The notes: generated by a model not told the origin, from the letters alone. Counted from the first letter of the stretch, positions 30,648-31,867 are shown. The stretch: DNA of 64,000 bases from an uncultured Planctomycetaceae bacterium (GCA_963813715.1 CAWFAK010000005.1:1056001-1120000), one strand, 5' to 3'. A program made the numbers and translations.

Positions 30648-30664
30648 CTTGTATGTTGAAAAAA

Positions 30665-30889
30665 GGTGAATCGGCGCATTTGATGGAGACGACCGTGGGG
30701 AAGCTTGCGAAGCGTAGCGGAGCAAGGTTCCCCACGGCGGCCGGCGGTAGATCGTCCGCCCTCAGGTCCAAGAAGACCGTGGGAGAGCTGGATCGCCGCC
30801 GGTCTCATGAGATCAGCCCGAACAGCCGTCAGAGCCGTCGTGGCGCCAGTCGCCGCTTGAGCTCGCATTCGCAAGGACGGGACATCGTC
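30665..30889 (+). ncRNA. Predicted IS110 bridge RNA (5' hairpin, target-binding loop, donor-binding loop); 5' end approximate
   Basis: Hairpin CCGTGGGGAA..TTCCCCACGG; second stem with internal loop GTCCGCCCT (30754-62) / GGGAGAG (30781-87); third stem with ACAGCCG (30822-28) / GCAAG (30871-75). Confidence 0.8.
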
Positions 30890-31843
30890 ATGGACGTCGC
30901 CTTCAAATCCTTCGTCGGTATCGACATCGCCAAACGGACCCTCGACGTGCACGTGCTGCCTGAGCGAACGTCGCTCAAGCCGCCAAACGATTCCAAGGGC
31001 CGAGGGCAACTCCGAGAGAAGCTTCCTCCTCCCGGAGAGTGTTTGATCGTCGTGGAAGCGACCGGCGGTTACGAGCGGGCCCTCGTCGCCGAACTGATCG
31101 ACGCGGGCCATCAGGTTGCGGTCGTCAACCCCCGACAAGTCCGCGACTTCGCCAAAGCCTGCGGAATCCTCGCCAAGACCGATCGGATCGACGCGGCCGT
31201 GCTGGCACGCTTCGGGCAGGCCGTCGTGCCGCGGACCCAGACCAAAATCCCGGAAAAACAGCTCGAACTGCAAAACCTCGTCGTCCGCCGCCGGCAGCTC
31301 GTCGAGCTGCGAACCGCCGAAATGAACCGCAAAGAAAACGTCGCCAGCAAGTTTGTTAAAAAGAGCCTTCAGGAGAGCGTCAACGCGCTCACCAAGCAGA
31401 TCCGACGCTTCGAGAAGCGAATCGCCGCGCTGGTCCAATCGGACGACGAGTGGAAACAGAAGGCCGAGATTGTTCAAAGCGCGCCGGGGATTGGACCGGG
31501 CACGAGTGCAACCCTGATCGCCGAGGTCCCCGAGTTGGGGAAGCTGAGTCGACGAAAAATCTCCGCACTGGTCGGCCTGGCCCCCTTCAATCGCGATAGC
31601 GGCGAGTTCCGAGGACGGCGCGCGATCCGCGGCGGCCGAAGTTCGGTGCGATGTAGCCTGTACATGGCGACGCTCAGCGCACGACGCTCCAACCCAGTCA
31701 TCAGAGCCTTCTCGGATCGCTTGAAAGCCCTCGGCAAAAAACCCAAGGTCATCATCACCGCCTGCATGCGCAAGCTGCTGGTGATCCTCAACACGATGGT
31801 CAAAAACAACACGCACTGGAACCCTGCAATCTCAACCACTTAA
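30890..31843 (+). CDS. IS110 family DEDD recombinase/transposase
   Basis: [22 protein letters not shown] (D-E-D-D), [14 protein letters not shown] (catalytic Ser), ACMRKLL. Confidence 0.97.
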
Positions 31844-31846
31844 CTC

Positions 31847-31867
31847 TTGAAAAGAAACACAGCCGCT
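31847..31867 (+). promoter_or_regulatory. -35 half of IS110 circle-junction promoter
   Basis: TTGAAA (31847-52) lands exactly 17 bp upstream of TATGTT (30652-57) when the ends are joined at the CT core. Confidence 0.75.

Follow-up and report, generated by a model that had tools for sequence, protein, structure and literature searches.

An IS621-like insertion sequence in a planctomycete assembly and the guide strands of its predicted bridge RNA

Can the guide loops of a bridge RNA be read, letter by letter, against the donor and target DNA of the insertion sequence that would encode it? This question is raised by a stretch of 64,000 nucleotides from an uncultured Planctomycetaceae bacterium (GCA_963813715.1 CAWFAK010000005.1:1056001-1120000; hereafter the window, all positions being counted from its first letter), in which a preliminary description had placed a CT-bounded IS110 element encoding a bridge-RNA recombinase. 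Our analysis indicates that this locus is very probably one intact IS621-like insertion sequence, composed of a gene for a DEDD/Ser recombinase and of a left-end bridge RNA that reads both donor and target.

The IS110-group element spans 1220 bp (30648-31867) with CT at both junctions. Its borders and the adjoining host DNA comprise the following features, whose letters (the cores, CCCGGCC, CTCCC, TGTAT and ACAGCCG) all stand where the preliminary description had quoted them.

30641..30647, + strand: left target (LT), CCCGGCC, host DNA within a repeat resembling a repeated extragenic palindrome (REP-like repeat)
30648..30649, + strand: left copy of the CT core, the same in 9/9 genomic copies
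30650..30654, + strand: right donor (RD), TGTAT, the element's first bases; with the core it forms CTTGTAT, the partner of the right donor guide
30655..30657, + strand: GTT, left half of a 3-bp sub-terminal inverted repeat (STIR) whose partner AAC lies at 31856-58
31859..31865, + strand: left donor (LD), ACAGCCG, the element's last bases
31866..31867, + strand: right copy of the CT core, the same in 9/9 genomic copies
31868..31872, + strand: right target (RT), CTCCC, host DNA, 5' arm of the repeat hairpin

A genome search recovered nine copies of the element, 93-100% identical, in the 7.49 Mb (18 contigs) of its own genome. The ends are the same in all nine, CT followed by TGTATGTTG... and ...ACACAGCCG followed by CT, with an alignment that diverges immediately outside, and the uninterrupted 14-mer CCCGGCC-CT-CTCCC, which is the empty site with its single CT, occurs 14 further times. 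For these reasons the boundaries are exact, and the CT-bounded element of the preliminary description stands: a single CT is common to the empty site and to each junction, and otherwise there is no duplication. The right flank is CTCCC at every copy, and the left flanks are CCCGGCC (three copies), CCGGCCC (two), CCCGACC (two), CCCCGAC (one) and CCGTCCC (one). The non-coding left end measures 240 nt (30650-30889) whereas the right end measures 22 nt (31844-31865), and the STIR is the only inverted repeat, terminal ones being absent; the available excerpts of Durrant et al. (PMC11208160) describe a STIR of 2-3 bp flanking the donor. Membership in the IS1111 group, which is characterized by a right-end guide RNA and a STIR of 7-17 bp, was excluded because the right end is only 22 nt long, the STIR being 3 bp. 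Another copy of the same element, 97% identical, lies partly within the window itself, at 63599-64000 on the - strand, and extends past it (G000:C5:1119599-1120858, G000 being the genome of the window); its open reading frame (ORF) is interrupted: the match contains one TGA and, compared with the copy at 30648-31867, three single bases are deleted.

The protein encoded between these ends has the domains and the active-site residues of an IS110 recombinase.

30890..31843, + strand: IS110-family RNA-guided recombinase of 317 amino acids (aa), catalytic residues D12, E56, D98, D101 and S237 (Pfam, NCBIfam and PDB matches)

Both an N-terminal DEDD RuvC-like domain and a C-terminal Tnp domain with the catalytic serine are present. 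The protein matches DEDD_Tnp_IS110 (PF01548, 3e-25) and Transposase_20 (PF02371, 3e-17) in Pfam, the NCBIfam model NF033542 'IS110 family RNA-guided transposase' with 229.9 bits for a cut-off of 140 and, over residues 7-307, the PDB entries of IS621 (8wt6, E 3.1e-42) and ISCro4 (9t56, 2.9e-42). Its five catalytic residues are invariant in 8/8 aligned relatives and align with D11, E60, D102, D105 and S241 of IS621, which form a composite active site according to the excerpts available from Hiraizumi et al. (PMC11208158). An upstream in-frame ATG at 30653 falls inside the RNA region. The 317-codon ORF is uninterrupted in three of the nine genomic copies, namely the window copy, C8 and C16:392050. 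The closest copies elsewhere (91-95% aa identity) come from metagenome-assembled genomes (MAGs) titled Planctomycetaceae, in agreement with the probable planctomycete host that had been proposed.

The 240-nt left end folds into three stem-loops with a minimum free energy (MFE) of -106.7 kcal/mol (z -3.27), a value equalled by 1 of 200 shuffles.

30693..30737, + strand: 5' stem-loop of the predicted bridge RNA (fold of the left end)
30739..30804, + strand: target-binding stem-loop, outer stem 30739-53 / 30791-804, inner hairpin 30765-78
30817..30883, + strand: donor-binding stem-loop, outer CCC(G)/(C)GGG, inner stem-loop 30832-64

Relatives of the element were collected from 37 loci, with one representative genome per species, and from 80 metagenome loci, leaving out about 31 further loci that have no regular-expression anchor. 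From these, the region from the second stem-loop to the ORF was aligned for 55 relatives (alignment A2), which omits 12 of the 67 segments found because they were duplicates, had truncated ends or carried false or over-long anchors. A five-helix structure pairs in 94.4% of the cells of this alignment versus 72.9% after shuffling, and compensatory changes occur at 21 of its 24 pairs; in the outer stem of the target loop, all 13 pairs show such changes; 0 of 500 shuffles reach the observed value, and sliding the helix partners by 1-3 columns, as a control, cuts pairing to 34-48%. The three stem-loops that had been seen in the roughly 240-nt left end are therefore supported both by the fold and by comparison. 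Since a scan of 30000-32500 against Rfam 15 with E up to 10 returned only weak matches, 14 in all, which do not approach their gathering scores and do not include any bridge-RNA family, a covariance model of our own was built from 52 relatives, leaving out the window and the loci L033 and L045. This model, which thus holds nothing of the window's own clade, matches 30736-30886 over its full length (109.7 bits, E 3.9e-25), and its matches in the whole genome are exactly the nine element copies, so that the genome contains no orphan bridge RNAs. In the single-sequence MFE structure, the C-rich and G-rich guide strands of loop 2 partly pair with each other; they are read here as strands of an internal loop on account of the comparative structure. 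Hence each guide string does lie on the loop strand assigned to it beforehand, with the qualification that those of loop 2 are partly paired in the MFE fold. A variant of the element was also seen in one contig of a soil RNA library (run X17, contig record 20, on window 30646-30826, depth 6), in which the whole 5' stem-loop (30691-30736) is replaced by a single A.

The layout of the guides was taken from IS621, in which the 5' strand of each loop supplies a left guide, identical to the top strand of the DNA, and the 3' strand a right guide, complementary to that top strand; the core is part of all four. With this layout, three of the four guides can be placed directly, together with the bases proposed to form the handshake, a concept that comes from the available excerpts of Hiraizumi et al. 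(PMC11208158).

30781..30787, + strand: right target guide GGGAGAG, reverse complement of CT+CTCCC, on the 3' strand of the first internal loop, preceded by a GU linker after the inner hairpin
30788..30788, + strand: handshake base C after the right target guide, which can pair with G7 of the left donor; C opposite G in 53/55 relatives
30822..30829, + strand: left donor guide ACAGCCG+U, in 7/7 agreement with the final 7 bases of the element, 5' strand of the second internal loop; U.G possible at the core C
30867..30875, + strand: right donor guide AU/UC/G/CAAG, nine RNA bases in discontinuous pairing with CTTGTAT, on the 3' strand of the second internal loop
30876..30876, + strand: handshake base G after the right donor guide, which can pair with C7 of the left target

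The right target guide pairs 7/7 with CTCTCCC, and both guide and flank are kept at all nine genomic copies, in full accord with the perfect complementarity noticed at the outset. The right donor guide includes one G.T wobble and two looped-out bases, and the GCAAG whose pairing with CTTGT had been recognized is its part at 30871-75, the whole being split as AU/UC/GCAAG. Among the relatives, the 7-mer of the left donor guide, sought downstream of the ORF, marked the right boundary, and the TGTAT closest upstream to the RNA marked the left one; the donor guide is thereby tested through the recurrence of this 7-mer after the ORF. At 52 of 55 loci these seven bases are found again just past the ORF, and CT comes next in all 52 cases, which extends to the family the 7/7 identity between ACAGCCG and the left donor. 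For the right target guide, Watson-Crick pairing of the five non-core positions to the right flank is found at 188/210 positions in 42 distinct guide/flank pairs, while random re-pairing yields 65.3 +/- 7.2 with a maximum of 90 in 2000 shuffles, and the CT core is present in 42/42 pairs; this test omits L037 and L125, for want of an AGC anchor, as well as loci that lack a right boundary or offer fewer than 7 bases of flank. Furthermore, the handshake base of the donor loop tracks position 7 of the left target (G:C in 31 and A:T in 4 of 44 relatives).

Such covariation bears on whether the left-end structure might be merely a leader or attenuator of the transposase mRNA, its matches to the flanks being due to chance. 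The structure does lie directly upstream of the ORF, and one of the 7-mers alone arises in 2-6% of shuffled left ends; however, GGGAGAG and ACAGCCG occur together in only 10 of 5000 dinucleotide-shuffled left ends, and the letters of the loops track the flanks in 42 distinct elements, which a leader function does not predict. A leader or attenuator is thus extremely improbable. As regards the bridge-RNA recombinase that had been proposed, the protein family, the anatomy of the element, the architecture of the RNA and the pairing of guides with DNA all fit the IS621 type.

The left target guide is the one whose reading is less straightforward.

30755..30763, + strand: left target guide in the family register, UCCGCCC + UC, where UCCGCCC pairs with LT and UC takes the core positions; alternative register 30754-62

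Across the family this guide also covaries with its target: 188 of 273 positions are identical in 39 elements, shuffled pairs giving 118.8 +/- 6.1 with a maximum of 142, so that guide-target covariation among homologues exceeds shuffles on the left (188/273) as on the right (188/210). Five loci whose left boundary was mis-picked by the TGTAT rule (L086, L113, L115, L134 and L147) and loci with fewer than 11 flank bases are omitted from the left-target tests. In the window, the string originally proposed, GTCCGCCCT, occupies the 5' strand of the first internal loop at 30754-62; its six identities out of nine plus one wobble are numerically right, but the match does not exceed chance by itself and the register is better placed one base further 3'. 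Indeed, depending on the register, the guide fits its own left target at 5-6 of 7 positions, which is within the chance range for this guide taken alone.

The choice of register was examined over the 12 sites that carry the window's left target guide, eight in its own genome and four in a related MAG. Read in the family register, their 84 positions comprise 57 identities, 12 wobbles and 15 mismatches, and 5-6 of 7 pairings are kept at seven of the eight own sites. In the alternative, the same system would use GUCCGCC on the left target and CU on the core, followed by a 2-nt linker (CA). CU is what most often pairs with the core across the family (consensus ...CCT-T-GG), the window copy alone shows 6 identical + 1 wobble of 8 in this register versus 5 + 2 of 9 in the family register, and a 2-nt linker gives the best reading for 7 of 39 relatives, a single linker base between the base pairing with the core T and the inner hairpin being found in 25 of 39. 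Yet over the 12 sites the alternative yields 38 identical, 14 wobble and 32 mismatched of 84 positions, and the sole genomic site that would match it perfectly, GTCCGCC-CT-CTCCC, occurs once and is unoccupied. The donor loop, in which the register is unambiguous by the 7/7 match, has the layout of 7 nt + UCA seen in the family register, and the covariance model aligns the loop gap-free in that register, although this is not independent evidence. On the strength of its fewer mismatches and of the common '7 nt + UCA' form, the family register is probably the correct one, and the GUCCGCC register appears unlikely. Both left guides carry UC rather than CU, and therefore the core T is probably unpaired on the bottom strand.

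Three other matches were considered and discarded. The idea that a guide in the GUCCGCC register is a relic of the neighbouring upstream core (..CGCC-CT-CACCC) found no general support, at least 5/7 identities being present in only 10 of 34 two-core units, with 127/238 identities overall. ACAGCCG-CT-CACCC, a string present once in the genome, falls in a coding-like region and matches by chance. As a possible partner of the 5' loop, the GCGGAC downstream of the insertion is not enriched (counted by eye, it is present at roughly 3-4 of 9 sites that are occupied and at 7 of 14 that are empty).

What does the element target? The insertion site is a dispersed palindromic REP-like repeat of the form ..GCCCTCAC-CCCGGCC-CT-CTCCC-(4-40 nt)-GGG[A/C]GAGGG, which in the window lies at 30588-30649 and 31866-31914 (CGGGACGGGACAC..GTTTCACCGAGAAA..GCCCTCAC-CCCGGCC-CT-CTCCC..GGGCGAGGGG). 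In the genome, 62 sites fit the central motif of the repeat including the upstream CTC[A/G]C, 43 of them also with the downstream arm, and most of the 74 matches in the genome search are short matches to either half of the repeat. Eight of the nine element copies lie inside REP-like units and the ninth in the complement of the accompanying GGGACGGGAC motif. IS621 also targets REP, a repeated extragenic palindrome. For IS110 elements, insertion into such palindromes is typical (reference 11 in Durrant et al., PMC11208160, as cited in the available excerpts; ISPpu9 and ISPpu10). The target specificity of its own that had been attributed to the element is thus for a REP-like hairpin repeat, which IS110 elements usually target.

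These flanks raise the possibility that targeting relies mainly on the 7-nt right target guide and on the repeat hairpin, the left guide being minor, in a natural 'half-match' insertion. RT is CTCCC in 9/9 own and 5/5 related-MAG copies while LT varies, the target is kept by L033 and by the copy at C5:1208037 in spite of their changed 5' loops, and preprints report, in the portions available, that IS621 inserts at half-matches and that a stem-loop of the target is a determinant for ISPpu10. Against this stand the strong covariation of left guide and left target across the family and the 5-6 of 7 pairings retained by the occupied LT variants at seven of eight own sites in the family register; moreover, with 9 of the 124 CCCTCTCCC sites of the genome occupied, no preference is computable. 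We regard targeting dominated by the right guide as a minority possibility; in the reading retained here, the target loop fits the host site chiefly by its 7-nt right guide and less exactly by its left one.

Close relatives offer a view of how the guides might change. In L045, from another Planctomycetaceae MAG, the left end is nearly identical to that of the window and the right target guide is GGGUGAG; on its right stands CT-CACCC and then ..CCCCTCTCCC, which places it at the neighbouring CT core in a repeat of the same kind. The A-to-U change in the right guide (GGGAGAG to GGGUGAG) matches the T-to-A difference between the CT-CTCCC and CT-CACCC sites. L038, a Planctomycetaceae MAG locus with 84% aa identity, has an intact right end at CT-CACCC. 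The left target guide drifts within the clade (UCCGCCC, UCCACCC, UUGACCC, UUGCCCC) and the left target lacks a matching change. One may speculate, though we consider it rather doubtful, that this planctomycete clade records natural retargeting within one host repeat, with a right guide that matches the core in use and a left guide that drifts; if so, specificity would reside mainly in the right guide and in the DNA hairpin, and the left guide would be under relaxed constraint. The L045 ORF contains two stops and that of L049 also contains stops. Upstream of the L038 ORF, there is no recognisable bridge RNA, and a long unrelated palindrome stands in its place.

How would the element move? Hexamer scans of the element and of the computed circle junction point to two candidate promoters, which score equally (9/12 each, by hexamer matches only).

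30652..30657, + strand: candidate -10 TATGTT, joined only in the circle, with a 17-nt spacer, to the -35 TTGAAA at 31847-52
31847..31852, + strand: candidate -35 TTGAAA of the right end (hexamer scan of the computed junction)
30656..30684, + strand: candidate internal left-end promoter, -35 TTGAAA at 30656-61, 17-nt spacer, -10 TTTGAT at 30679-84

By analogy with IS621, the element would be excised as a circle, whose junction of right and left ends would complete a sigma-70-type promoter (TTGAAA-17-TATGTT), and the bridge RNA would be transcribed from this junction promoter or from the internal left-end promoter. A recombinase tetramer would then bind the RNA, the donor loop holding the junction ACAGCCG-CT-TGTAT and the target loop a copy of the repeat, and strand exchange at the CT core would lead to insertion, with no target duplication beyond the common CT.

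Seventeen studies of soil and rhizosphere, possibly including the source, contribute 20 runs with sequence near-identical to that of the element; six of these runs are RNA libraries, and the six metatranscriptomes contain 58-71% of the sampled words. Contigs of three RNA libraries span the bridge-RNA region and the ORF, it being understood that contigs cannot reveal transcription, strand or ends. At 30645/46 and around 31872-79 the contigs of the runs are interrupted, which a repeat would be expected to cause. In four runs the contigs contain no back-joint, or circle junction, a result that is uninformative either way because contigs drop rare forms. 'Skip' joints in contigs, for instance from 30617 to 31866 with 30 other letters between, were taken up as possible precise excisions and proved to be other copies of the host repeat.

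Several observations weigh against the IS621-like reading given at the outset. The RNA, the circles and the recombination are all deduced from sequence, the 14-mer of the circle junction has 0 occurrences in the assembly, and the ORFs of six of the nine genomic copies are broken by indels of 1-3 bases, which may reflect decay or assembly error. Others concern the left target guide, which even in its better register is mismatched at 15 of 84 positions over its 12 sites, and whose fit of 5/7 to its own target is reached or exceeded (at least 5/7) with 5 of 37 unrelated left targets. The close relative L033, with the same target, has a very different 5' loop that at best matches with 4 identical + 2 wobble positions of 8. 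A different 5' loop at the same kind of site is also found in the diverged copy at C5:1208037. Finally, the core-pairing positions of the left guides read UC and not CU in both loops.

Comparison with known systems places the element closest to IS621 of Escherichia coli (PMC11208160, PMC11208158; PDB 8wt6). According to the excerpts available from these sources, the two have in common a DEDD + Ser recombinase and a CT core, a left-end RNA with a 5' stem-loop and two stem-loops bearing internal loops, left guides on the 5' and right guides on the 3' strands of these loops, handshake bases after both right guides, and a right donor guide (A157-G165 in IS621) split alike into two paired bases, two looped out, one G.T and four paired. 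The differences are that the protein match is distant, that in those excerpts the right target guide of wild-type IS621 has 4 nt versus 7 nt here, and that the 5' strand of the planctomycete target loop is one base shorter than the count from the IS621 residue numbers; in addition, the left guides of the planctomycete element carry UC instead of CU at the core, its left donor is ACAGCCG, and it belongs to a planctomycete host. The ISCro4 transposase (PDB 9t56), compared by protein sequence only, is equally close (E 2.9e-42, 148 bits). ISPpu10 and ISPpu9 of Pseudomonas putida, compared by description from partly available sources, are also multi-copy IS110 elements in a conserved intergenic palindromic sequence; for ISPpu10 the target stem-loop is reported there as a second specificity determinant, and ISPpu9 differs by a small RNA that lies downstream of the gene for its transposase and not upstream as in the planctomycete element.

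Every IS110-group feature that can be read from the letters thus appears to be present, with the exception of a convincing match of the left target guide. The element is a new orthologue in the bridge-recombinase class that was described in 2024 and is named in NCBI models. In the excerpts available from Durrant et al. (PMC11208160), thousands of IS110 elements were reconstructed and bridge RNAs predicted in 85.7% of the catalogued IS110-group members, and the supplementary tables of that study may already list this element or its relatives. A full-text literature search returned no paper combining bridge RNA with planctomycetes. Although the known mechanism is unchanged by it, the planctomycete element supplies a fully delimited natural bridge-recombinase system, with the donor ACAGCCG-CT-TGTAT, a target family N7-CT-CTCCC in a hairpin repeat and a 7-nt right guide, and provides one more orthologue for engineering screens. 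Furthermore, its 9 insertions and 14 empty sites in one genome, with more in soil metagenomes, constitute a small natural data set that informs the tolerance of left-guide pairing and shifts of guides between neighbouring cores.

The same genome, G000, harbours a second, unrelated IS110-family element in eight copies.

G000:C5:1485897-1486883, C5:644154, C7:43038, C8:46508, C12:90577, C7:224535, C12:9688 and C7:435709: copies of the unrelated IS110-family element

This element has a left end of about 130 nt and a conserved right end of more than 300 nt, an IS1111-type layout, which leads one to expect a guide RNA downstream. It is not flanked by the REP-like repeat, and four of its copies appear frameshifted.

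The neighbourhood of the IS621-like element is rich in insertion sequences: a 451-aa ORF at window 32504-33859 on the + strand matches the NCBIfam model NF033592 for IS4 family transposases (187 bits versus a cut-off of 115). An imperfect palindrome of about 80 nt lies at 30480-30562 (..GGCACCAAGGACACCAAG..CTTGGTGCTCTTGGTGCC..), with chance microRNA-like matches only in Rfam, and a CACCAAGG-rich stretch resembling it flanks the C8 copy. A short tandem array of GTCCAAAG/GTCCAAGG units occupies 30385-30415, and similar arrays are found at C16, C11 and C5:1206487, beside further element and repeat copies.

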